From: Cyclobacteriaceae bacterium
GTDB taxonomy: Bacteria > Bacteroidota > Bacteroidia > Cytophagales > Cyclobacteriaceae
Direction of reading: 5' to 3'
Length of the DNA stretch: 64,000 bases
NCBI GenBank assembly: GCA_016787725.1
Contig: JAEUTZ010000005.1
Span: 72,317 to 136,316 of the forward strand
Part shown: piece by piece, positions 4,765-57,932 of the stretch
Layout of the letters: every line of letters begins with the position of its first letter
Numbering within the stretch: the stretch's first letter is position 1
Translations under genes and position numbers: made by a program
The notes under the pieces: model-generated
The model's database searches: none
What the model saw: only the letters and a program-made list of their open reading frames with translations
What the model was told of the DNA's origin: nothing

Positions 4765-7700
4765 ATGAATAAATACGCTACCCCACTCTGTATGATGCTT
4801 ATTCTGGTAAGCATCGCCACGCTGGCTCAGGAACCTAAAAAGGAAGAAAAAGCCGACACTGTAAAAAAGGAAAAGCCGAAAAAGAAAAAGGACTTACCCC
4901 TGGAAGTAGCCAGGCGTGTGCCTATTAAAACCACCGAAGGCACGTGGATGTCGTTGGATGTTAGTCCGGATGGAAAGACCATCGCCTTCGATTTTTTGGG
5001 CGACATTTTCACCATGCCCATCACCGGAGGCAAGCCCGTCCAATTTACCAGCGGTTTGGCATTCGATTCGCACCCGAAATTCAGTCCGGATGGAAAGCGG
5101 TTATTGTTTATTTCCGATCGCAGCGGTGGTGAGAATATCTGGTGGTTTACACTGGATAAAAAAGATTCACTGCAGGTTACCAAAGGCAACACGGACCATT
5201 ATCAATCTGCCGAGTGGACCCCGGATGGAAATTACATTGTCGGATCGCGGGGTGGTCGTAACCTGAAATTATGGATGTTTCATACGGAAGGAGGCTCCGG
5301 TGCGCAGCTTATCAGCAAGCCCGATAATTTGAAAACGGTGGAGCCTGCTTTTGGTGCCGATGGCCGTTATATCTGGCATGCCCAACGCAATAATGCATGG
5401 ACTTACAACGCACAACTTCCACAATATCAACTGGCAATTTACGATCGGGAGACGGGTGAAACCGAAACCGAAACTGCCCGGTATGGTTCCGCCTTCACCC
5501 CCACCCTTTCCCCCGATGGTAAGTGGCTGGTGTACGGATCGCGATACAATGATCAAACAGGTCTTCTTCTTCGCGACCTGAAAACGGGCGATGAAAAGTG
5601 GCTCGCCTATCCCGTGCAACACGATGAGCAGGAATCCATTGCTCCGTTGGGCGTATTACCCGCCATGTCTTTTACCCCTGACAGTAAAAATGTGATCGCA
5701 TCGTATGGTGGCAAGTTTTACAGCATACCGGTTGCCGGAGGCAATGCTGTAAACATCCCTTTCGAGTTGGAGACAGAATTTCTGATGGGTGCCACGGTGG
5801 CAGATTTTAAATACCCGATCAAGGATGATAAAGATATGGTTGTCACCCAAATTCGGGATGGTGCAGTATCCCCCGATGGGAAACAACTTGCATTCACAGC
5901 CCTGAATAAGTTGTATGTGATGGACCTTCCTGCCGGAACACCCCGCAGAGTTACCACCAACACCGTAACGGAAGCCATGCCTGCCTGGAGTAACGATGGC
6001 AGCCAACTGGCCTGGGTAACCTGGGAAGGCACGGCCGGTAACATTTACAAGATGAACTTCAAAGTAAAAGGTGCCAAGCCGGTTAAACTCACAACCTCCC
6101 CTGCGTTGTATAGCGAACCCGCCTGGTCAGGCAACAAGATTGTGTTCCTGATGGGCACCGCTCACAATTATAAAGAAAGTGACGGCCCCTTTGCGTTCTC
6201 CAGCCAGGAAGATCTTGCCTGGATCAGTGGCGATGGTGGCGCAGTCAACTTCATTGCCAAATCAAGAGGAAGGGGCATGCCTCACTTCACCAAAGCGGGT
6301 GATCGAATCTATTTGTACAGCGGACAAAAGGGATTGGTGTCCATCCGGTGGGATGGAACAGACGAGAAAGCACATCTGAAAGTTACCGGCATTACTGTAT
6401 ATGGCTTCACCAACGATGAAAACCAGTGCATGTTGGTGGAAACATCGGCCGAGCCACAACGCGAACCTTCCAACGCTTCAGTCATTCTGATGGCCCCGGA
6501 AGGAGATCAGGCAGTGGCAAAAATCAACAATGATATTTATGTTGTCACGGTGCCGAAAACGGGTGGTGAAACTCCAAAAATTTCTGTGGCGGATGCCGAA
6601 AACGCCTCTTTTCCAGCCCGCAAACTCACGAAAATGGGTGGCGAATTCCCAAGCTGGAGTAGGAATGCAAAAACTGTTTACTTCTCGTTAGGCAACGCGT
6701 TTTTTACCTATACCCTTGATGAGGCGAAAGCCAACGAGGAGGCATTGAAAAAGAAAAAGGCGGAAGAAGAAAACGCAAAAGAGGATGGCACAGTAAAACA
6801 AGAAGAGAATATACCGGCAGAGAAGAAAGATGAGACCTACAAGCCCAATGAAATCCGGGTTAAGATTACCGTGCAAAAAGATATCCCCAGTGGAAAAATT
6901 CTTTTACAAAACGCCCACATCATAACGATGAAAGGGGATGAAGTTATTGAGCGGGGGGATGTCTTGATTGAAAACGCGCGTATCAAGCAAGTAGGTGCAG
7001 CCGGCACAATTTCGGTAGATGGATCGGTGCAAAAGATGGACGTAAGCGGGAAGACGATCGTTCCCGGTTTTGTTGATACTCATTCGCACATGTGGCCAGC
7101 CTGGGGCATTCATAAAAATCAGGTGTGGATGTATGCAGCCAACCTCGCATACGGGGTAACCACCACCCGCGATCCCCAGACCTCCTCTACCGATGTATTG
7201 ACGTACAGCGATATGGTTGAAACCGGTGAAATCATTGGCCCCAGAATTTATTCTACCGGACCGGGCGTTAGCTACTGGATGTACAATTTAAAAGATGCCG
7301 ATCAGGCCAAAGACATTTTGAAGCAATACTCGGAATACTACAATACCAAGACTATCAAAATGTACCTGACCGGCAACCGGCAGCACCGGCAATGGATCAT
7401 TCAGGCGGCAAAAGAACAAAACCTGATGCCAACCACCGAAGGCGGGTTGGACTTCAAACTCAACCTGACCAATTTAATTGATGGGTATCCCGGGCACGAA
7501 CACGCATTCCCGATTTATCCGCTGTACAAAGACTTTACCACTGCAGTGGCCGCTTCGGGCATGACCTATACACCTACCTTGCTGGTGGCCTATGGCGGTC
7601 CCTGGGCAGAAAACTTCTACTATGCAACGGAAAATGTCAATGGCGATCCAAAATTGAATCACTTCACTGCCAAGTCTGAGCTCGATTCAAAATCGCGAAG

Positions 7701-48946: not shown

Positions 48947-50041
48947 ATGGCATTTCTTAATCGCCCGGCTGCGTATAAAGTCTGGATCTTCGCGCCCTAC
49001 CTCGACACGGATGATCCCACTTTAAAATATTATTACGACTATACTCAAAGCATAGCCGAATACAGTAAGGTATTCTCTGAACTGGACTGTGAATGGGAGT
49101 GGGTTAATGTTACCGTCAACAATATCCAGGCGTCTATTGAAAAGGTGAAGAAACACAGACGCAAAAAAAACATCGTGCTGAACCTTTGCGATGGTGATGA
49201 AATCAATGAAGTACCCGGCATTTCGGTTATTCATGCACTGGATGCAAGTAACCTGACCTATACCGGGTCTGATTCTCACTTCTATCACGTCACCACCTCC
49301 AAGATCACCATGAAAGAAGCCTTTCATGAACATGGTGTTGCTATGCCCAGTTGGGCAAAGTTAAATGGGCATATCGATCCGGATCTTTTCAAGAAGGTAG
49401 GCAAACCCCTTATCGTAAAACCTGCCGTATCAGCCGGCAGCATGGGTATTAGCATTAAAAACGTAGTATCGGGCAAACGGCAACTGAAGAGCGTGTTGGA
49501 TACTATGCATACCGGATTTAAAGGTTGGAAGCTGGATGGAGCCGGGTTGTTGGCCGAACAGTTCATCATTGGCCGCGAATTCACCACACTGCTGGTCGGG
49601 TCTTACGAAAGCCCAGAAAAGATCCAGTTTTACAGGCCCATTGAACGGGTATTCCATCAATCCCTTCCCGAAAAGGAACAGTTTCTGTCCTTTGAACGCC
49701 TTTGGGAAACGTATGAAGAGGAGAAACCCTTGCCGGACAACGAATTTCTTTATGCCTACCAACCAGTGACCTGTCCGGAGCTTGCTGCCAGGTTGAAAGA
49801 GTTAAGTCTTGATGCCTTTAAAGCGGTAAAGGGACGGGGGTATGCCCGGCTCGATTTCCGGTTGGACAAGAAGACGCAACAACTCTTTGTTTTGGAGATA
49901 AACGCTCAATGTGGCCTGAGTGAGGATGAGAATTATACCTCGATCGGGGCCATCTTGCGGGTAAGCAATAAAACCTTTACTGATCTGATTGTAGAAGTAT
50001 TGGATGATGCTTTACTTCGCAAGTCCAAAGCCCTTCCATGA
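48947..50041 (+). CDS. D-Ala-D-Ala-ligase-like ATP-grasp enzyme (non-canonical)
   Basis: YTGS, KPAVSAGSMG, EQFIIGREFT, YARLDFR and LEINAQCG motifs; lacks GGxSxE and LHG; start moved to ATG 48947. Confidence 0.85.
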   Translation: MAFLNRPAAYKVWIFAPYLDTDDPTLKYYYDYTQSIAEYSKVFSELDCEWEWVNVTVNNIQASIEKVKKHRRKKNIVLNLCDGDEINEVPGISVIHALDASNLTYTGSDSHFYHVTTSKITMKEAFHEHGVAMPSWAKLNGHIDPDLFKKVGKPLIVKPAVSAGSMGISIKNVVSGKRQLKSVLDTMHTGFKGWKLDGAGLLAEQFIIGREFTTLLVGSYESPEKIQFYRPIERVFHQSLPEKEQFLSFERLWETYEEEKPLPDNEFLYAYQPVTCPELAARLKELSLDAFKAVKGRGYARLDFRLDKKTQQLFVLEINAQCGLSEDENYTSIGAILRVSNKTFTDLIVEVLDDALLRKSKALP

Positions 50042-51489
50042 AAGTATGCGTTCTGCAACCTGACTATAGTACTACCGATGTAGACTATAAGCAGTACGAC
50101 CCTCCCCGCAACATTGCCCCCTTGTTGCCAAACGATCAGGTAGACCATGTGTTTCTGAACAAGCTTACTACCTATAAGCAACTGCTGGATTTGCGCAAAT
50201 CAAAGTACGACATCTTTGTTAACCTGTGCGAAGGGTATCTGGATTGGTCGGTTCCCTCCATTGATGTTATCCATTCGTTGGAAACATTGAACCTTCCCTT
50301 TACCGGTCCCAATGCGGTCTTGTACGATCCCCCAAAGCCGCTGATGAAATATGTGGCTTTCTGTGCCGGAGTAAAGACACCCAACTTTGTGGAAGTAACG
50401 AGTACCGTTGACCTGTTCAAAAAAATAAGTCACTTAACATTTCCCCTGTTCGTAAAACCTGCGAAGGCGGGGGATAGCCTGGGGGTGGATGAGGAGTCTC
50501 TGGCGAAAGACCTACCGCACTTACAACACAAAGTGGCGGCCCTGATTGCCGAAGGATACGAAGACGTACTGATTGAAGAATACATTGCCGGGCAAGAGTT
50601 TACGGTGTTGGTGGCTGCCAACATTGCACCACAGCGAGGATGTCTCGTGTTTAAGCCTGTGGAATACCAATTCCCGAACGGGTATGCCTTCAAGACGTAT
50701 GCCTTGAAAACCTCCGAGTTGCATACCGATGTAAACAAACCTTGTCAGGATGCGACCCTGGAAACCAAACTGAAATCGGCTGCTGAAAAAATCTTCTCGG
50801 GGTTTTATGGAGTAGGGTATGCCCGGCTCGATTTTCGGGTGAACAGTCAGCAGGAAATTTATTTTTTAGAAATCAATTTTACCTGTTCGGTTTTTTATGA
50901 AGATGGGTACGAAGGCTCAGCCGATTACATCCTGAAATATGATCCCATTGGTAAAGCCGGATTTCTGAAGCACATCATTGCCGAAGGGATTGCCCGGCAC
51001 GCAGCAAAACAAAAAAAATACCGCGTCAATGGTACCGCTATTAACGGCTATGGGATCGTTGCCCAGCGCTCATTAAAGAAAGGCGAAGTTATTTTTATGC
51101 TGGAAGAACTCGCCCAGCGCATTGTAACCAAGCGTCACGTTGAAACCCATTGGACCCCGGAACAACGGGAAGAATTCCGTCACTACGCTTATCCTATTTC
51201 GGAGGAAGTGTACATTCTATGGGATAACAAGCCACAGAACTGGGCCCCTCAAAACCACAGTTGCAATCCCAACACAACCTACAATGGCCTTAACCTGGTT
51301 GCCCTGCGGGATATTGCCCCTGAAGAAGAACTCACCCTCGATTATTCGGAGCTTCTGAATGAAACCATGCAGTCCTTCGTGTGCACCTGTGGCGCCCCAA
51401 ATTGCAGAAAGGTGATCTCCGGAAATCCCGGCAACTCCATCACACAACGGGAGAAATTTTCCCTGATGACCCCGAAAATCAAAGAGTAA
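50038..51489 (+). CDS. Ddl-like ATP-grasp enzyme fused to SET/post-SET methyltransferase domain
   Basis: KPAKAGDSLG, EEYIAGQEFT, YARLDFR, LEINFTC; then GYGIVA, NHSCNPN, ELTLDY and CTCGAPNC. Confidence 0.88.
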   Translation: MKVCVLQPDYSTTDVDYKQYDPPRNIAPLLPNDQVDHVFLNKLTTYKQLLDLRKSKYDIFVNLCEGYLDWSVPSIDVIHSLETLNLPFTGPNAVLYDPPKPLMKYVAFCAGVKTPNFVEVTSTVDLFKKISHLTFPLFVKPAKAGDSLGVDEESLAKDLPHLQHKVAALIAEGYEDVLIEEYIAGQEFTVLVAANIAPQRGCLVFKPVEYQFPNGYAFKTYALKTSELHTDVNKPCQDATLETKLKSAAEKIFSGFYGVGYARLDFRVNSQQEIYFLEINFTCSVFYEDGYEGSADYILKYDPIGKAGFLKHIIAEGIARHAAKQKKYRVNGTAINGYGIVAQRSLKKGEVIFMLEELAQRIVTKRHVETHWTPEQREEFRHYAYPISEEVYILWDNKPQNWAPQNHSCNPNTTYNGLNLVALRDIAPEEELTLDYSELLNETMQSFVCTCGAPNCRKVISGNPGNSITQREKFSLMTPKIKE

Positions 51490-51549: not shown

Positions 51550-51888
51550 ATGAGATACTGCCTTGGCTTTCTACTTGTATTCGGATTACTACCCCACCTC
51601 CGGGGTCAATCGTATGTCCCATTAAAAAGCGAAACCCGGATGATTCATCCGAAAGCAACTCTAAAAACATATGCCTTTTCATTAAGCGATGTATCCCTGC
51701 TGTCCGGACCCTTTCAAAATGCCTTGCAACGGGATGTGGCGTATATACTTCAATTGGATCCAGACCGTTTCCTTGGTCATTACCTATCCGCTTGTGCCAT
51801 GGATGATGCTGCTACTGGCGATCAACGCTTTAAAGAAAAGTGGTGCGAGGGGAATCGGAAAATGATTCACCGCAAAGGTGTACGGTAA
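51550..51888 (+). pseudogene. Internally deleted, truncated GH127/GH146 (DUF1680) glycoside hydrolase
   Basis: Signal peptide + LSDVSLLSGPFQNA..YILQLDPDRF joined directly to LGHYLSACAM..ATGD; stops at 112 aa. Confidence 0.7.
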
Positions 51889-51913: not shown

Positions 51914-52831
51914 ATGAATCTAAGCCGAAGACAATTCATATCTTCCTCCGCACTTGCCGGCAGCGGTTTGATGTTGTCATCTTTGGAATCCTTTGCCAAT
52001 CCGGTAGGGCTTGTTAATCAGGCGGGCTATACACTCACGATCTTAGCCACCAATTGGGGCCTTTCCATTTCGTGGGATGAATTTTGTGCCAAAATAAAGA
52101 CAGCCGGATATGACGGTTGTGAAATCTGGTGGCCGGGAAAGGCTGAGGACAGAAAGTTACTTTTCGAAGCATTGAACAAACACCAGTTGAAAATCGGATT
52201 CCTGTACGGAAGTGGCGAGAAAGATTTTGCAAAACACGAAGCACAATTCAATCAGTTTGTAGCCGAAGCTGCTGCTACCAGACCGCTCTACATCAACTGC
52301 CATAGCGGCAAAGACTATTTTACTGTTGAGCAAAAAGAAAAACTGATCAAACAGTCTCTTGCGGTGGCGACACAAAGCGGCATTCCAGTGTATCACGAAA
52401 CGCACCGGGGCCGGGCATTATATTCAGCTCCCGTAACCGCAGAGTTGATGAAAAAGATTTCCGCGTTACGACTTACGCTCGACATCTCGCATTGGTGCAA
52501 CGTTCATGAGTCGTACTTAAGCGATCAGGAAGAAACTGTAGCACTGGCACTGACCCGAACAGATCACATTCATGCTCGCATAGGTCACCCGGAAGGGCCC
52601 CAGGTGAGTGACCCCCGGGCTCCTGAATGGGAACGTGCGGTAAAGACACATTTTACATGGTGGGATAAAGTTGTCGAAAACAAAAAGAAAGTGGGTCAGC
52701 CCATTACGTTTCTTACCGAATTTGGCCCACCGGATTATATGCCAACGTTACCGTATACAAGACAGGCTGTTTCCAATCAATGGGATATTAATGTGCATAT
52801 GAAGGATATTCTGCGCAGCCGGTATGCTTAA
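51914..52831 (+). CDS. Sugar phosphate isomerase/epimerase (xylose-isomerase-like TIM barrel), Tat signal
   Basis: SRRQFI twin-arginine signal; HETHR, DISHW, HIHARIG and TEFGP metal-site motifs. Confidence 0.8.
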   Translation: MNLSRRQFISSSALAGSGLMLSSLESFANPVGLVNQAGYTLTILATNWGLSISWDEFCAKIKTAGYDGCEIWWPGKAEDRKLLFEALNKHQLKIGFLYGSGEKDFAKHEAQFNQFVAEAAATRPLYINCHSGKDYFTVEQKEKLIKQSLAVATQSGIPVYHETHRGRALYSAPVTAELMKKISALRLTLDISHWCNVHESYLSDQEETVALALTRTDHIHARIGHPEGPQVSDPRAPEWERAVKTHFTWWDKVVENKKKVGQPITFLTEFGPPDYMPTLPYTRQAVSNQWDINVHMKDILRSRYA

Positions 52832-52884
52832 ACACGTATGCCATGATCAAAGGCTGGAGTCAATGCACTATCTTTAGTAGATAA

Positions 52885-53670
52885 ATGAGTGCTTTACAAA
52901 ATAAAAAACTGGTCATAATAGGAGGCACCACTGGCCTGGGCTTCTCAGCGGCCAAAGCGTTTATACGAGCCGGAGCGCACGTTGTGGTGGTAGGGAGAAA
53001 TGAAGAAAGTGCAACATCTGCAGCGGTTCTCCTAAAAGAACACGGGATTGTATTAACGGGAGATGCAATTTCGGAATCCACCGCACTCCACGCCATTGAT
53101 ACGTGTATTTCAAGCTGGGGGGGATTCGATGGTCTTTATCATGTTGCAGGCGGTAGCGGCCGTAAATTTGGCGATGGCCCCTTGCATGAATTAACCCTGG
53201 AAGGCTGGAAGAAAACGCTGGATCTGAATCTTACCTCGCTCATGCTTTCCAACCAGGCTGCTATACAAACCTTCCTGAAAAGGAAAACAGCCGGCACCAT
53301 TTTAAACATGGCTTCTGTGCTAGGCTATTCACCATCCCCTGGTCACTTTGTTACTCACGCCTATGCAGCTGCCAAAGCGGCCATCATCGGATTATCAAAA
53401 TCCACAGCCGCTTACTATGCCACTCAGAATATCCGCATCAATGTACTTGCTCCCGCGCTGGTGGAAACACCTATGGCGCAACGGGCCGTTCACGATGAAG
53501 CAATTCTGGCATTCATTAAAACCAAGCAGCCGCTGGATGGCGGGCGCATTGGCCGACCTGATGATCTGGATGGTGCTGCCGTTTATTTTATGTCCGATCA
53601 ATCCCGATTTACCACGGGCCAGGTACTGGCAGTCGATGGCGGCTGGGAAATAAGCGAAGGACAATATTGA
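52885..53670 (+). CDS. SDR-family oxidoreductase
   Basis: GGTTGLG cofactor loop; YAAAK; GQVLAVDGG. Confidence 0.9.
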   Translation: MSALQNKKLVIIGGTTGLGFSAAKAFIRAGAHVVVVGRNEESATSAAVLLKEHGIVLTGDAISESTALHAIDTCISSWGGFDGLYHVAGGSGRKFGDGPLHELTLEGWKKTLDLNLTSLMLSNQAAIQTFLKRKTAGTILNMASVLGYSPSPGHFVTHAYAAAKAAIIGLSKSTAAYYATQNIRINVLAPALVETPMAQRAVHDEAILAFIKTKQPLDGGRIGRPDDLDGAAVYFMSDQSRFTTGQVLAVDGGWEISEGQY

Positions 53671-53672
53671 GT

Positions 53673-54575
53673 ATGGAACATTCCTCCATCGGCATCGATT
53701 TGGGTTGTACACACATCAAAGCGATTTTGGTGACCGCTGATGGAACCCTTTTGAAAGAAATACGGCAGGATACCGAAGAACAAAATGACCAGCATTGGAA
53801 GAATGCAATCCGGCAAATCGTACAACAATTAAAAAAGGAATCTAACAAACCGGTTCAGGCCATTGGGCTTTCAGCGCCTGGTCTTGCCAATTCCACAAAT
53901 ACCTGCATTGAGTTTATGCCCGGCCGGTTACCCGGATTAGAAAATTTCAATTGGTCCGATTTTACGGGCGAACGGATTGATGTGCTCAATGACGCCCACG
54001 CAGCGCTAATGGCAGAACTGCAATTTGGTGCCGCTAAAAACTGCAAACATGTTGTCATGCTAACGTTAGGAACGGGGGTGGGTGGCGCTATTTCAATTGA
54101 TGGAAAATTATATCAAGGCGTTTCGCAAATGGCCGGACACCTGGGCCACATTACGGTAGATGCTTTATCATCATCCAAGGATGTTACCAACATGCCCGGT
54201 AGTCTGGAAGATGCCATTGGCAATTTAACCATACAACAGCGTACCCAAGGAAAATTTAAAACAACATGGGAGCTGGTAAAAGCCTATGAAGCAAAAGATC
54301 CATTCGCAACCCAGGTATGGCTTACCTCCTTGCGACAGCTGGCTGTTGCCATGGCATCCTTGATTAATGTTTTATCACCCGAATTAATTATTGTAGGTGG
54401 TGGCATTTCGAAAGCAGAAGCATTATTGATTACCCCCCTGCAACAGTACCTTTCAGAATTTGAATGGCGACCGGGAGGCAAACAGACTCCCATAAAATTA
54501 GCCCGCTTCTCCGATCTGGCTGGGGCCCTTGGAGCCGCTGGGTTTGCCCTTTCCAAAATCAATCAAAGACTATGA
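53673..54575 (+). CDS. ROK-family sugar kinase
   Basis: GIDLGCT, NDAHAA, TLGTGVGG, GHLGH and IVGGG motifs. Confidence 0.88.
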   Translation: MEHSSIGIDLGCTHIKAILVTADGTLLKEIRQDTEEQNDQHWKNAIRQIVQQLKKESNKPVQAIGLSAPGLANSTNTCIEFMPGRLPGLENFNWSDFTGERIDVLNDAHAALMAELQFGAAKNCKHVVMLTLGTGVGGAISIDGKLYQGVSQMAGHLGHITVDALSSSKDVTNMPGSLEDAIGNLTIQQRTQGKFKTTWELVKAYEAKDPFATQVWLTSLRQLAVAMASLINVLSPELIIVGGGISKAEALLITPLQQYLSEFEWRPGGKQTPIKLARFSDLAGALGAAGFALSKINQRL

Positions 54576-55360
54576 GTGTAATACAAGAGTATATTTCGCT
54601 TAGCAAAAAAATTGCAGATACCATAACGGCACAGGAATCGAGTATAAAACAAGCTGCCGATTGGTTTACAAAATCCATCCAGTCGGGTCGGATGGTTCAC
54701 GTTTTTGGATCCGGCCACAGCCGCATCCTGGTAGAAGAAATGTGGCCCCGGTATGGTTCATTTCCCGGATTTAATCCCATTGTTGAGCTATCGTTGACCT
54801 TTCATAATTTGGTGGTAGGCGCAAACGGGCAGCGACAAGCCATGTTTCTTGAAAATGTTTCGGGGCTTGCCGAGCGGATTCTCCGGAATTTTGATGTAAG
54901 CGAGCAGGATACGGCACTCATTATCTCTTCCAGCGGAACGAATGTAGTTCCTGTAGAGATGGCCGAAGAGTTTCGGAAGAAAAAAATCAAGGTGGTTTCC
55001 ATTCTCACCAGCAAGCATTCGGAAAAAAGTGAAAGCAAGCGAAGTGATGGGAAGAAACTGCGCGATTTCTCAGACCTCGTTCTGGACACAGGCGCCCCTG
55101 CAGGCGATTCGATGATCTACATCCAAGGGCTGGAAACCCCAGTGGCTCCGGGATCAACCCTTGGCGGAGTTATGCTGATCAATTGCCTGAAAGCAGAGGT
55201 GGCCCGTTTATTAACGGAAGCCGGTCATCCCCCCATTGTACTCACGGCTGCCAATGTTGTTGGAAAAGACAAAGCTACTGCGCTATTTGAACGTGCTTAC
55301 GATGACCATGCACATCGGTTGGCGCGCTTATATGAACATGTTGGTGAATCAAAAAAATAA
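54572..55360 (+). CDS. SIS-domain sugar-phosphate isomerase/dehydratase (UPF0309-like)
   Basis: VFGSGHS, ISSSGTNVVPVEMA and DTGAPAGD motifs; ATGA overlap with the ROK gene. Confidence 0.8.
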   Translation: MSVIQEYISLSKKIADTITAQESSIKQAADWFTKSIQSGRMVHVFGSGHSRILVEEMWPRYGSFPGFNPIVELSLTFHNLVVGANGQRQAMFLENVSGLAERILRNFDVSEQDTALIISSSGTNVVPVEMAEEFRKKKIKVVSILTSKHSEKSESKRSDGKKLRDFSDLVLDTGAPAGDSMIYIQGLETPVAPGSTLGGVMLINCLKAEVARLLTEAGHPPIVLTAANVVGKDKATALFERAYDDHAHRLARLYEHVGESKK

Positions 55361-55362
55361 TT

Positions 55363-56391
55363 ATGCAACCCATTCCCATCCGCACCACCGTTATTGGCAG
55401 CTACCCGTTTCCGGGATGGCTGGAATTTTCTGTTCGACATCTGAATGAATTTGGCAATGCCGACCGGGAAGAATTAATTGAAGATGCGGTCATCGCGGCC
55501 ATTCACGACCAGGTAACGGCCGGGTTGGATGTGATCACCGATGGCGAACAGACCCGGCTCGATTTTAATCTCTCCTTTTACGGATACCTAACGGGCATCA
55601 AAGAAAATACCGATGAACTTCGCAAATTCGGTCCGCCCGCACACGATCAAAGAGGAAAGAATTCCATTGTGGATACCCTCACGGCTCCGAACGGACTAGG
55701 TGCCGTAAAAGAATTTCTGAGATTAAAAAAGCTTGCGCCTGCCGGGCCGGTTTTAAAGACCAGCATACCCGGGCCCTATACATTGAGCGGGAGACTGCTT
55801 CCCAATGAAAAGTATAAAGATCGGTACGCGATCACCGAAGCGTTGCTTCCCATTATCAAAAAAGAACTTGAAGATTTAGTGGCTGCGGGCTGCACCGAAA
55901 TTACAGTGGATGAACCCTCCATGAGTTGCTATGCCTACAAGGAAGACACAAAACGGTTTGTCGACATCTTTAACCGGACGGTGGCAGGCATAGCAGGCAA
56001 GTGTCGTCTCTCTACACACTTGTGCTTCGGTAATTTTAAGGGCCGGCCGGTTGGGTTTCGGAGTCTCGCCCCCATGCTGCCAGACTTTCTGAATCTAAAG
56101 GTGAATGAAGTCCACATTGAAATGGCCAATCGCGAGTTTGCGGAAGTAGAGTTGTTGAGCACGTTTGCCGATAAGATGGATGTTGCCGTAGGCATTATTG
56201 ATGTAAAAAATTACTACATCGAAACCGAAGCGGATGTGGTGAATCGGATTGAGAAATGCCTGAAGTATGTACCGGCTGAAAAACTGGCCGTGGCTCCCGA
56301 TTGCGGGTTAAGTCAAACAGCACGGTGGGCTTCGCGGCAAAAATTGATTAATATGGTGAAGGGTGCGAAGTTGGTAAGGGCTGGTCTTTAA
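55363..56391 (+). CDS. Single-barrel cobalamin-independent methionine synthase-like (MetE C-terminal/CIMS) Zn enzyme
   Basis: TTVIGSYP, QVTAGLDVITDGEQ, PGPYT, QIDEP-equivalent TVDEP, HLCFGN, E and PDCG Zn ligands; 342 aa. Confidence 0.85.
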   Translation: MQPIPIRTTVIGSYPFPGWLEFSVRHLNEFGNADREELIEDAVIAAIHDQVTAGLDVITDGEQTRLDFNLSFYGYLTGIKENTDELRKFGPPAHDQRGKNSIVDTLTAPNGLGAVKEFLRLKKLAPAGPVLKTSIPGPYTLSGRLLPNEKYKDRYAITEALLPIIKKELEDLVAAGCTEITVDEPSMSCYAYKEDTKRFVDIFNRTVAGIAGKCRLSTHLCFGNFKGRPVGFRSLAPMLPDFLNLKVNEVHIEMANREFAEVELLSTFADKMDVAVGIIDVKNYYIETEADVVNRIEKCLKYVPAEKLAVAPDCGLSQTARWASRQKLINMVKGAKLVRAGL

Positions 56392-56394
56392 TAA

Positions 56395-56459
56395 TTAACC
56401 GCAGAGACGCTAAGGCGCAAAGTTTGTTTATCCAGAATTACGGGCGTCTTCGCAGTTAA
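56395..56459. repeat. Degenerate REP-like palindrome within the operon
   Basis: TTAACCGCAGAGACGC (56395-56410) versus GCGTCTTCGCAGTTAA (56444-56459). Confidence 0.5.
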
Positions 56460-56476
56460 AAATCTTTGTTGTAATC

Positions 56477-57322
56477 ATGATCAAACCTATCCGACAAGGT
56501 AAATCGCTAGCTCAAGAAATCCGAGAAGCTAAAGCAAATGGCCACGCGCAGTCGTTTGACATCTGGTGGTTGGGGCAAAGCGGCTTTTTGATTCAATGGA
56601 ATAAACATTGTCTGTTGTTCGACCCCTATTTATCGGATTCCTTAACCCGAAAGTATGCCGGCACAAATAAGCCACACGAGCGAATGAGTGAGCTCGTCAT
56701 CCAGCCGGAACTGCTGGATTGCATCGATGTTGTAACCTCCAGCCACAATCATACAGATCATCTGGATGCTGAAACATTATTGCCGTTGTTTCAGGTCAAT
56801 CCAAAAATTCAATTTGTAATTCCTGAAGCCAACCGCAGTTTTGTGGTGGATCGCTTAACGTGTGATGTGAACTTTCCTACAGGCTTGAATGATGGTGACA
56901 CGAAAGTGGTAAACGATTTTACTTTTCATGGTGTACCGGCCGCGCACAATGCTATTGAACGCGATGAACAAGGGCGCTGCAAGTTCCTGGGCTTTGTGGT
57001 GAAATTCGGAAACTTTATAGTTTACCACAGTGGCGATACCTTGTGGTACGAAGATATGGTTAAGACGCTGAAACCATTTAAGGTAGATGTCGCCTTTCTA
57101 CCAATTAATGGAAATGATCCGGCTCGGGGCGTAGCCGGAAATCTAAATTGCAAAGAAGCTGCCTTGCTCGGAAAAGAAATTGGAGCCCGCCTTGTGATTC
57201 CACATCATTACGACCTTTTTTTGTTCAATACAGCTGACGTGGACGAGTTTGAAAAACAAGCTAATCAATTCAACCAATCGTACCGAATATTAAAACTGGG
57301 TGAGCGGACAACCATAACGTAA
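56477..57322 (+). CDS. Metallo-beta-lactamase-fold hydrolase, UlaG-like
   Basis: WWLGQSGF, FDPYLS, SHNHTDHLD, HSGDT, LPING and PHHYD motifs. Confidence 0.85.
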   Translation: MIKPIRQGKSLAQEIREAKANGHAQSFDIWWLGQSGFLIQWNKHCLLFDPYLSDSLTRKYAGTNKPHERMSELVIQPELLDCIDVVTSSHNHTDHLDAETLLPLFQVNPKIQFVIPEANRSFVVDRLTCDVNFPTGLNDGDTKVVNDFTFHGVPAAHNAIERDEQGRCKFLGFVVKFGNFIVYHSGDTLWYEDMVKTLKPFKVDVAFLPINGNDPARGVAGNLNCKEAALLGKEIGARLVIPHHYDLFLFNTADVDEFEKQANQFNQSYRILKLGERTTIT

Positions 57323-57442: not shown

Positions 57443-57892
57443 TTAAAACCTCCAGTTCATCTGCAATCCAAGTGAATTACCACTTGGCTGAAAAATAAGG
57501 GTGTTATATCGATCAACAGCCTTACCCAATTTCACATGGCTCATGGCCGTTATTCCCAATTGAGCTGCAATGGTGCCTCCAAACACCAGCCAAAAGGCAG
57601 TAGGATCCACGTATCCGGTGGAGGGTATCGTGAATAAGTAAATCACCGGTACAATGGCAACCGCGCTCGCCACTCCCCGCAGCGTCTTTGATGCCTGATA
57701 GTAGCGGTATACTTCATCGTCATTGAGCGCCATTAAAGGAACCTCCAACGCAACTGGAGAAGCCACTCTTTTCAAATCATAGTAGTACCGCCAACCCTGC
57801 TTGGCGATGGGTTTTAGTTCAACGGTTTTATAGCGTTGAGCAAAAAGGACCGCAGGAACCAGGAATATGAAAACAAGAAGACATCGTTTCAT
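57443..57892 (-). CDS. Exported/membrane hypothetical protein
   Basis: Signal peptide MKRCLLVFIFLVPAVLFA; two hydrophobic helices; C-terminal GLQMNWRF strand. Confidence 0.65.
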   Translation of the reverse strand: MKRCLLVFIFLVPAVLFAQRYKTVELKPIAKQGWRYYYDLKRVASPVALEVPLMALNDDEVYRYYQASKTLRGVASAVAIVPVIYLFTIPSTGYVDPTAFWLVFGGTIAAQLGITAMSHVKLGKAVDRYNTLIFQPSGNSLGLQMNWRF

Positions 57893-57932
57893 AAACGAGG
57901 GCATTAACATTAACTAAAATAAACAATGCGAA

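Follow-up and report, generated by a model that had tools for sequence, protein, structure and literature searches.

In a 64,000-nucleotide stretch of contig JAEUTZ010000005.1 from a Cyclobacteriaceae bacterium (hereafter the window), we analyzed five adjacent genes encoding an SDR oxidoreductase, a ROK-family sugar kinase, a SIS-domain protein (SIS), a single-barrel MetE-like zinc enzyme (CIMS), and an MBL-fold hydrolase (MBL). Our results show that these genes, in the order SDR-ROK-SIS-CIMS-MBL, form a catabolic operon that is conserved in Bacteroidota, is horizontally patchy in its distribution, and lies in glycan-utilization loci, and that SIS, CIMS, and MBL are its co-inherited core, with intact catalytic sites in all three. 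The component superfamilies are known; their combination and its function are undescribed, and we found no description of this gene cluster in the literature. A NagS-like enzyme, a predicted homocysteine-binding zinc enzyme, and an MBL hydrolase that are inherited together in glycan loci constitute a testable, uncharacterized pathway, and its carriers are polysaccharide degraders of soil, freshwater, and marine habitats. We judge the chances to be evenly balanced that the three enzymes form a new system using homocysteine directly on a sugar-phosphate skeleton or substituent, as a methyl-conserving demethylase or as a thiol-adduct pathway. If so, the operon would connect glycan catabolism with sulfur amino acid metabolism in a way not known before and would provide the first function for the large "methionine synthase II family," which is found also in other catabolic clusters.

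SIS, CIMS, and MBL are inherited together

Co-occurrence was assessed in 151 evenly drawn genomes of the order, 11 of which carry CIMS. Orthologs of SIS (at least 69% identity) and of MBL (53-66% identity) were each found in 10 genomes, all within the 11 CIMS-positive ones, and neither was found in any of the 140 CIMS-negative genomes. The co-occurrence of the three genes holds even when they lie on different contigs (Fisher p ~9e-15, uncorrected for shared ancestry). A sample of the phylum contained CIMS in 7 of 401 genomes, and all seven also encode a SIS ortholog. CIMS is absent from ~93% of the order's genomes and also from two genomes of the window's own genus; the set has therefore been gained and lost as an accessory unit.

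The initial annotation had placed the MetE-like gene in a sugar-catabolic operon. The synteny data agree with this placement and indicate that the gene belongs specifically with the sugar-phosphate genes and is not a stray methionine gene: linkage of SDR, ROK, SIS, CIMS, and MBL is kept in Cytophagales (Chryseolinea, Larkinella, and Emticicia among them), Chitinophagales, Sphingobacteriales, and Flavobacteriales. Scanning one genome per species gave 80 loci with CIMS at 73-95% identity, the nearest being that of an Ohtaekwangia metagenome-assembled genome (95%). Cultured isolates, for example of Larkinella, Emticicia, and Maribacter, are among the carriers. Gene presence was counted at 87 CIMS loci by tblastn and clustering of open reading frames (ORFs), and many of the incomplete loci are short contigs. 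MBL accompanies CIMS in 72 of these loci, SIS in 69, and ROK in 65; SDR orthologs upstream of ROK (56-95% identity) were likewise present in 65. All five genes occur together in 53 loci, and in all but two of them (51/53, spanning four orders) they are collinear and co-directional. The gene order is unchanged in relatives whose CIMS is 89% identical, and a marine metagenome with a 62% identical CIMS carries SIS-CIMS-MBL alone, with SIS and CIMS overlapping by 4 nt. A 4-nt overlap between CIMS and MBL was seen in Flavobacteriales.

The Tat-signal TIM-barrel gene upstream of SDR had been counted as a further member of the operon. This was not borne out, as the gene adjoins the operon in only ~4 of the 87 loci. 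In close relatives (L026-L028), it lies within a PSCyt1/PSD1-DUF1501-TIM-DUF2231 cassette, and in L029, a locus otherwise identical, the cassette is absent and an ATP-grasp/SET gene directly precedes SDR. The four genes of the cassette encode a PSCyt1/PSCyt2/PSD1 protein, a DUF1501 protein, the TIM barrel, and a DUF2231/PSCyt1 cytochrome, and they are located between the ATP-grasp/SET gene and SDR. The TIM barrel in the window is the sole survivor of this separate, variable cassette.

CIMS retains the zinc and homocysteine sites of methionine synthases

CIMS is the sole Meth_synt_2 gene (Pfam PF01717) of its genome, scoring 100.7 bits against a gathering score of 21. Its closest solved structure is Shewanella MesD (PDB entry 3RPD, E 2.2e-28), followed by MetE C-terminal barrels. 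An AlphaFold2 model of CIMS (pLDDT 90, pTM 0.89) matched the MetE C-terminal barrel and MesD with TM scores of 0.82-0.85 in Foldseek.

We used the list of zinc- and homocysteine-binding residues of Price et al. (PMC7857596), in which S433, E484, and D599 of Escherichia coli MetE bind homocysteine. The His-x-Cys, Glu, and Cys zinc ligands reported in the initial annotation are indeed intact (H219, C221, E253, and C314). The homocysteine-binding positions correspond to S13, E62, and D183, which align with S22, E73, and D188 of 3RPD. All seven residues are invariant in 88 CIMS sequences, S13 being missing solely from three N-terminally short ORF calls. Because the homocysteine-binding residues are invariant beside the zinc ligands, the most likely thiol partner is a homocysteine-type amino acid and not a thio-sugar, as had also been considered. 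Near-invariant positions (at least 97% identical) make up 45% of CIMS, compared with 39% of SIS, 27% of MBL, 15% of SDR, and 11% of ROK. Two extra cysteines near the DEP motif, C189 and C299, are also invariant. Residues 61-70, 81-100, and 221-230 are invariant in sequence but have lower pLDDT values in the model, from which we infer that these loops may be mobile and contact a second substrate.

CIMS falls short of every methionine-synthase equivalog model. It scored 74.3 bits against the MetE model TIGR01371 (cut-off 929.95) and does not qualify as a MetE, which has two barrels in ~750 aa, the N-terminal one binding folate polyglutamate, whereas CIMS is a single barrel of 342 aa. None of the other equivalog cut-offs was reached: PRK04326, the best match, gave 214 of 406 bits, PRK09121 (MesD-type) 126 of 392, PRK00957 89 of 258, and PRK01207 65 of 399, where the PRK models are not matched to individual Mes families, except that 3RPD is MesD. 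In our phylogenetic tree, the Bacteroidota CIMS sequences formed a tight clade (SH-aLRT 99) apart from MesD, the C-terminal half of E. coli MetE, and YxjG-like proteins. Of the comparison envisaged in the initial annotation, with MetE, MesA-D, and XecA, the tree covers MesD and MetE. Grouping with bona fide core methionine synthases was not seen, either by the model scores or in the tree.

MesD (3RPD; PMC7857596) and the MetE C-terminal barrel share with CIMS a single (beta/alpha)8 barrel, four zinc ligands, and three homocysteine residues, and both MesD and CIMS are without the folate-binding N-terminal barrel. They differ in that CIMS is only 25-31% identical to MesD and MetE and has sugar-phosphate enzymes as its partners. 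Acinetobacter MesD, ~30% identical to CIMS, is located in a plasmid cluster of MesX, MesD, and a flavin reductase, unlike CIMS. The MesD family has been delimited by an identity of at least ~72% to ACIAD3523-type proteins (PMC7857596), and CIMS lies below this value.

More distant CIMS homologs (37-46% identity) were set aside as a guide to context: they lie next to a flavin monooxygenase with a LysR regulator, next to a 4HBT-MaoC pair, or on short contigs, in settings unrelated to the operon. In one family member (P0124, 43% identity), the DGE motif and one zinc cysteine are gone, and another (P0169) is a Kelch-propeller/CIMS fusion. Apparent FAD-oxidoreductase-CIMS and CIMS-PTE chimeras are probably gene-call run-ons that restate adjacency.

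CIMS is almost certainly not a housekeeping methionine synthase

Thousands of database genes are labeled "methionine synthase" or "MetE" on fold alone. CIMS could accordingly be read as a stand-alone, folate- and B12-independent "core" methionine synthase that merely lies beside sugar genes, with a methyl donor unrelated to them. Such a reading would fit the retention of every methionine-synthase functional residue in CIMS and the lack of a full-length MetE in the genome. It would also fit one locus (L023 of genome G140, 5022-6152) in which CIMS lies 99 nt downstream of a Cys/Met-metabolism pyridoxal phosphate (PLP) enzyme, although this adjacency may be due to chance, because it is not shared by L018 from the same genus. 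The near-perfect co-inheritance of CIMS with SIS and MBL argues against it, as do a split MetH encoded in the genome, the operon order conserved in four orders, the patchy distribution of CIMS even within its own genus, and its position below every equivalog cut-off and apart from MesD and MetE. Moreover, the distributions of MetE and CIMS are not complementary: among genomes with CIMS, 3 of 11 encode MetE, and among those without it, 27 of 140 do (p = 0.46). We therefore rejected CIMS as a replacement for MetE.

An Rfam scan of the window and 11 related loci at the gathering threshold gave one tRNA as its sole match and no cobalamin or S-adenosylmethionine riboswitch, in a scan run with no positive control on a MetE-bearing relative; this also speaks against a stand-alone synthase. 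The same holds for MesX (DUF1852, PF08908), which was not found in the genome, a weak negative, as the control genomes also gave no match. Together with the separate CIMS clade, this control-less search led us to discard a MesD-type system. We regard a stand-alone synthase as very improbable, and a housekeeping role in methionine synthesis can almost certainly be dismissed for the Bacteroidota CIMS clade. Where this clade is taken as a sign of B12-independent methionine synthesis, metabolic models may therefore be wrong.

SIS is related to NagS, and its partners are sugar-phosphate enzymes

By sequence, SIS matched PDB entries 3cvj (E 2.6e-34) and 9eol (E 2.8e-23, ~30% identity). The latter is NagS (SCO4393) of Streptomyces, an N-acetylglucosamine 6-phosphate (GlcNAc-6-P) dehydratase that makes an unsaturated sugar phosphate; its residues H53, R64, E94, and D179 are essential, and S91 and N228 are important for catalysis (PMC12680351). 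NagS homologs outside Streptomycetaceae were found to be without GlcNAc-6-P dehydratase activity (PMC12680351). In 70 SIS orthologs, the counterparts of NagS H53, S54, R64, E94, S119, and D179 (H49, S50, R60, E94, S119, and D179) are invariant, and S121 is Ser in 60 and Gly in the others. An invariant Met takes the place of NagS S91, and at position 228 Ala, Cys, or Asn is found.

Rather than the generic SIS protein or isomerase of the initial annotation, SIS is thus a NagS/MurQ-type enzyme, as indicated by the 9eol match and the kept catalytic residues. It shares with NagS and the MurQ etherase the SIS_2/UPF0309 fold, the phosphate-binding serines, and the essential residues. It departs from NagS at S91/N228, in having less than the identity of at least ~59% that marks the NagS group, in its origin outside Streptomycetaceae, and in its neighbors, as NagS is linked to dmdR1 and not to CIMS or MBL. 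Since the catalytic core is kept, S91/N228 are changed, and distant homologs are inactive, SIS is probably a related phosphosugar enzyme with another substrate or outcome.

The description of MBL as a UlaG-like hydrolase was correct as to the fold, but the UlaG label is loose (PRK11709, 55.9 bits against a cut-off of 306). Its top NCBIfam match was PRK00685 (79.5 bits against 144), and it matched PDB entries 3bv6 and 2wyl (UlaG) at E ~1e-9. MBL has the fold and two-metal motif in common with UlaG, the L-ascorbate-6-phosphate lactonase, and scores below the UlaG equivalog model. Across 73 orthologs, there is no variation in the HxHxDH motif (H90, H92, D94, and H95) or at H157, H184, D187, and H244.

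The nearest NCBIfam model for SDR is glucose 1-dehydrogenase (169.5 bits, cut-off 215). ROK scored about equally against the glucokinase, allose kinase, and N-acetylmannosamine kinase models, all below cut-off. It keeps the GHxGH stretch and has no cysteines where the Cys-rich zinc motif of ROK proteins is usual (GHLGHITVDALSSSKDVTNMPGSLEDAIG). A 53% identical ROK paralog in the same genome (C22:227030-228645) is divergent to a NagB-like gene, itself 41% identical to the NagB-like family associated with the operon; the two may be an amino-sugar kinase/deaminase pair.

The operon lies in glycan-catabolic loci with variant modules

The setting of the operon is glycan-catabolic and amino-sugar-flavored. 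A NagB/AgaI-like deaminase is present in 15 loci, often between CIMS and MBL. Recurrent neighbors are GntR/UTRA regulators, two kinds of Gfo/Idh/MocA dehydrogenase, and a GMC oxidoreductase with a DoxX protein; others are a GH43 enzyme with an F5/8 type C domain, three tandem PF10091 glycoside hydrolases, and a GDSL esterase. Five of the 87 loci carry an MFS transporter and a Rieske oxygenase, the Rieske gene following ROK or SIS. This oxygenase scored 372 bits to GbcA and matched the stachydrine demethylase Stc2 (PDB entries 3vca and 4qup) at E ~1e-87.

In some genomes, a pair consisting of an FAD-oxidoreductase (PF12831) and a PTE protein stands in for CIMS and MBL. Three CIMS-less genomes with a 66-67% identical SIS ortholog carry SDR-ROK-SIS-FAD-oxidoreductase-PTE without MBL (L131, L132, and L133), one of them with a Gfo/Idh/MocA gene upstream; L032 is listed with these variants. 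In Larkinella and Pareuzebyella, both pairs are found in one operon, in the order SIS-FAD-oxidoreductase-PTE-CIMS-MBL. A search by sequence found no solved relative of the PF12831 protein. The PTE protein is closest to phospho-furanose lactonase (161.9 bits, cut-off 630), which parallels the UlaG-like MBL. The likeness of MBL to UlaG and of PTE to phospho-furanose lactonase therefore points to a phosphorylated lactone step.

Further genes were observed near MBL. In five Ohtaekwangia-like loci (L045 and L047-L050), a TIGR01976 class V PLP protein (cysteine-desulfurase-like, 413 bits, above cut-off) directly follows MBL; the window's genome has a 79% identical ortholog on contig C2, not linked to the operon. 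Arrays of three to seven tandem paralogs, mostly ~110-125 aa (two are ~190-245 aa) and carrying a "...DG.SLID.W..." motif, occur near MBL orthologs. Three of them (L038 3947-6406, L040 9177-12364, and L041 6079-8364) lie beside MBL orthologs unlinked from CIMS, and one (L016 15601-16835) lies a few kilobases downstream of the operon's MBL.

A homocysteine-dependent transfer from a modified sugar phosphate is tentatively favored

Our best reading, which we put forward tentatively and hold to be possible rather than probable, is that a modified hexose or hexosamine phosphate gives up a methyl or alkyl group in a homocysteine-dependent transfer that is integrated into the pathway. The operon would process such a modified sugar after its uptake from glycan breakdown. 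ROK would generate the sugar 6-phosphate, and the NagS/MurQ-like SIS would open the ring and act at C2/C3 by enolization, elimination, or isomerization. SDR would oxidize the phosphosugar, and the UlaG-like MBL would hydrolyze the resulting phospholactone. The step order put forward in the initial annotation (kinase, SIS, MetE-like enzyme, lactonase, SDR) is hypothetical. CIMS would hold L-homocysteine on zinc as methionine synthases do, receiving a methyl or small alkyl group from a phosphosugar derivative and not from methylfolate. It would then act as a catabolic demethylase that conserves the methyl group by forming methionine, by analogy with betaine-homocysteine methyltransferase (BHMT) in betaine catabolism. 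In some genomes, the FAD oxidoreductase and PTE phospholactonase, or a betaine-type Rieske N-demethylase, may perform an equivalent or added job. A solved pathway would name a new sugar substrate and a function for the UPF0309 proteins outside Streptomyces and could reveal a new form of methyl-group salvage or of handling reactive sugar phosphates.

Among thiol addition, enone opening, and demethylation, the possibilities raised in the initial annotation, we lean toward demethylation. S-Methylation or S-alkylation of homocysteine is favored because CIMS keeps a complete methionine-synthase site, because demethylase-type enzymes appear as alternatives or additions, because a deaminase for the free amino sugar phosphate is often present, and because BHMT sets an example of methyl transfer to homocysteine in a catabolic pathway. 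The likeness to BHMT, which acts in glycine betaine catabolism, is a functional analogy only: there, too, a zinc-homocysteine acceptor strips a methyl group from a nutrient, but BHMT belongs to another family (PF02574). GbcA/Stc2-type Rieske enzymes are the oxidative alternative and occur in the same operon in the five loci described above.

Several points weigh against methyl transfer. The analysis yielded no candidate for a methylated sugar or an activated methyl donor, and a zinc thiolate draws methyl groups only poorly from sugar O-methyl ethers or secondary N-methyl amines. Trimethylglucosamine, the sole quaternary amino sugar that we found in the literature, is a rare moiety of one antibiotic and was rejected because it is too rare for this distribution. 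Methyl transfer alone leaves the strict joint inheritance of CIMS, SIS, and MBL unexplained, and the Rieske N-demethylase, limited to 5 of 87 loci, may be a separate inserted cassette. Finally, the equivalents of S13, E62, and D183 are near-invariant in distant family members from unrelated gene contexts; their conservation in CIMS may therefore not prove homocysteine use. A salvage of S-ribosylhomocysteine as in LuxS-like pathways was dropped on chemistry alone, as ROK and SIS act on hexose 6-phosphates and the sulfur is at C5 of ribose.

The main rival, a thiol-adduct route, would account well for the co-inherited trio, as each of the three enzymes would have a part in it. By dehydration of the sugar 6-phosphate, SIS would form a 2,3-unsaturated or alpha-oxo aldehyde; to this carbon electrophile, CIMS would add the zinc-activated thiol of homocysteine or cysteine, and, after oxidation of the adduct, MBL would free the thiol as a recycled cofactor. 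Epoxyalkane:coenzyme M transferase (XecA/EtnE), a zinc enzyme of the MetE family, uses a carbon electrophile to alkylate a thiol, and SDR dehydrogenases act next in its pathway. We likened it to CIMS by description and not by sequence; its thiol, coenzyme M, has no amino acid moiety, whereas CIMS keeps an amino acid pocket, and no alkene monooxygenase gene was found near the operon in the window or among the neighbors in related loci. The invariant C189 and C299 would also suit thiol chemistry, and SIS keeps the four residues essential in NagS, an enzyme that makes an unsaturated sugar phosphate (PMC12680351). However, the catalytically important S91 and N228 of NagS are changed in SIS, and distant NagS homologs showed no dehydratase activity in assays (PMC12680351). 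MBL is of the UlaG/UPF0173 (lactonase) type and not of the glyoxalase II type, and homocysteine is scarce and without precedent as a recycled cofactor. In addition, SDR persists in the CIMS-less variants and is therefore not a dedicated adduct dehydrogenase. Taken together, we consider a thiol-adduct route unlikely, and a reading that dispenses with a thiol substrate much more so. In the latter, the amino acid pocket would take a sugar acid, such as a 2-amino-2-deoxy-aldonate 6-phosphate made by SDR and MBL, and the zinc site would carry out an elimination, a deamination, or another reaction that is not an alkylation. SDR and a phospholactonase would indeed turn a hexosamine 6-phosphate into an alpha-amino acid, the NagB-like deaminase and NagS-like SIS indicate amino sugars, and the conservation of the pocket residues in family members from many unrelated contexts is consistent with another ligand. 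The His-Cys-Glu-Cys zinc site is, however, of the thiolate-alkylation type, and we know of no member of the MetE fold with elimination or deamination chemistry; we regard this explanation as quite improbable.

Gene layout of the locus

All six plus-strand genes proposed for positions 51914-57322 were recovered by the ORF scan and by Pfam and NCBIfam searches (Table 1). The TIM-barrel gene is separated from SDR by 53 nt. SDR and ROK are spaced by -4 nt with the TTG start of ROK or by +2 nt with an alternative ATG at 53673, and ROK and SIS overlap in an ATGA junction. The start of SIS is the internal ATG at 54572, which matches the orthologs; the start called by the ORF finder (54464) is wrong. 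CIMS begins 2 nt after the SIS stop, as first described, and is followed by a gap of 85 nt before MBL. The unit ends at MBL because convergent genes come next. The G+C content is even over the whole region. A promoter and terminator scan yielded nothing beyond chance, with a sigma-70 model that is ill-suited to Bacteroidota.

Table 1. Genes of the operon and the adjoining TIM-barrel gene (positions in the window)
Feature	Coordinates	Strand	Evidence
Tat-signal xylose-isomerase-like TIM barrel	51914..52831	+	AP_endonuc_2 E 2.5e-8; twin-arginine leader MNLSRRQFISSS
Classical SDR oxidoreductase, 261 aa, gene 1 of the conserved five	52885..53670	+	adh_short_C2 E 7.5e-51
ROK-family sugar kinase, 302 aa	53667..54575	+	ROK E 1.2e-45
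SIS_2/UPF0309 (PRK02947) protein, 262 aa	54572..55360	+	PRK02947 264 bits, cut-off 135
Single-barrel MetE-like zinc enzyme (CIMS), 342 aa	55363..56391	+	Meth_synt_2 E 1.3e-28
MBL-fold hydrolase, 281 aa, last gene of the unit	56477..57322	+	Lactamase_B_2 E 7.4e-19; also Lactamase_B_3

Two small ORFs without a Pfam match flank the six genes. Upstream of the TIM-barrel gene lies a 112-aa ORF with a signal-like N terminus (51550-51888), and downstream of MBL lies a 155-aa membrane-like ORF on the minus strand (57443-57910), which is 93% conserved in L043. Directly upstream (48947-51489) is a tandem pair of Ddl-like ATP-grasp ligases, of which the second carries a fused SET domain. This pair adjoins the operon in the closest relatives (L026-L029 and L043) and not in other genera.

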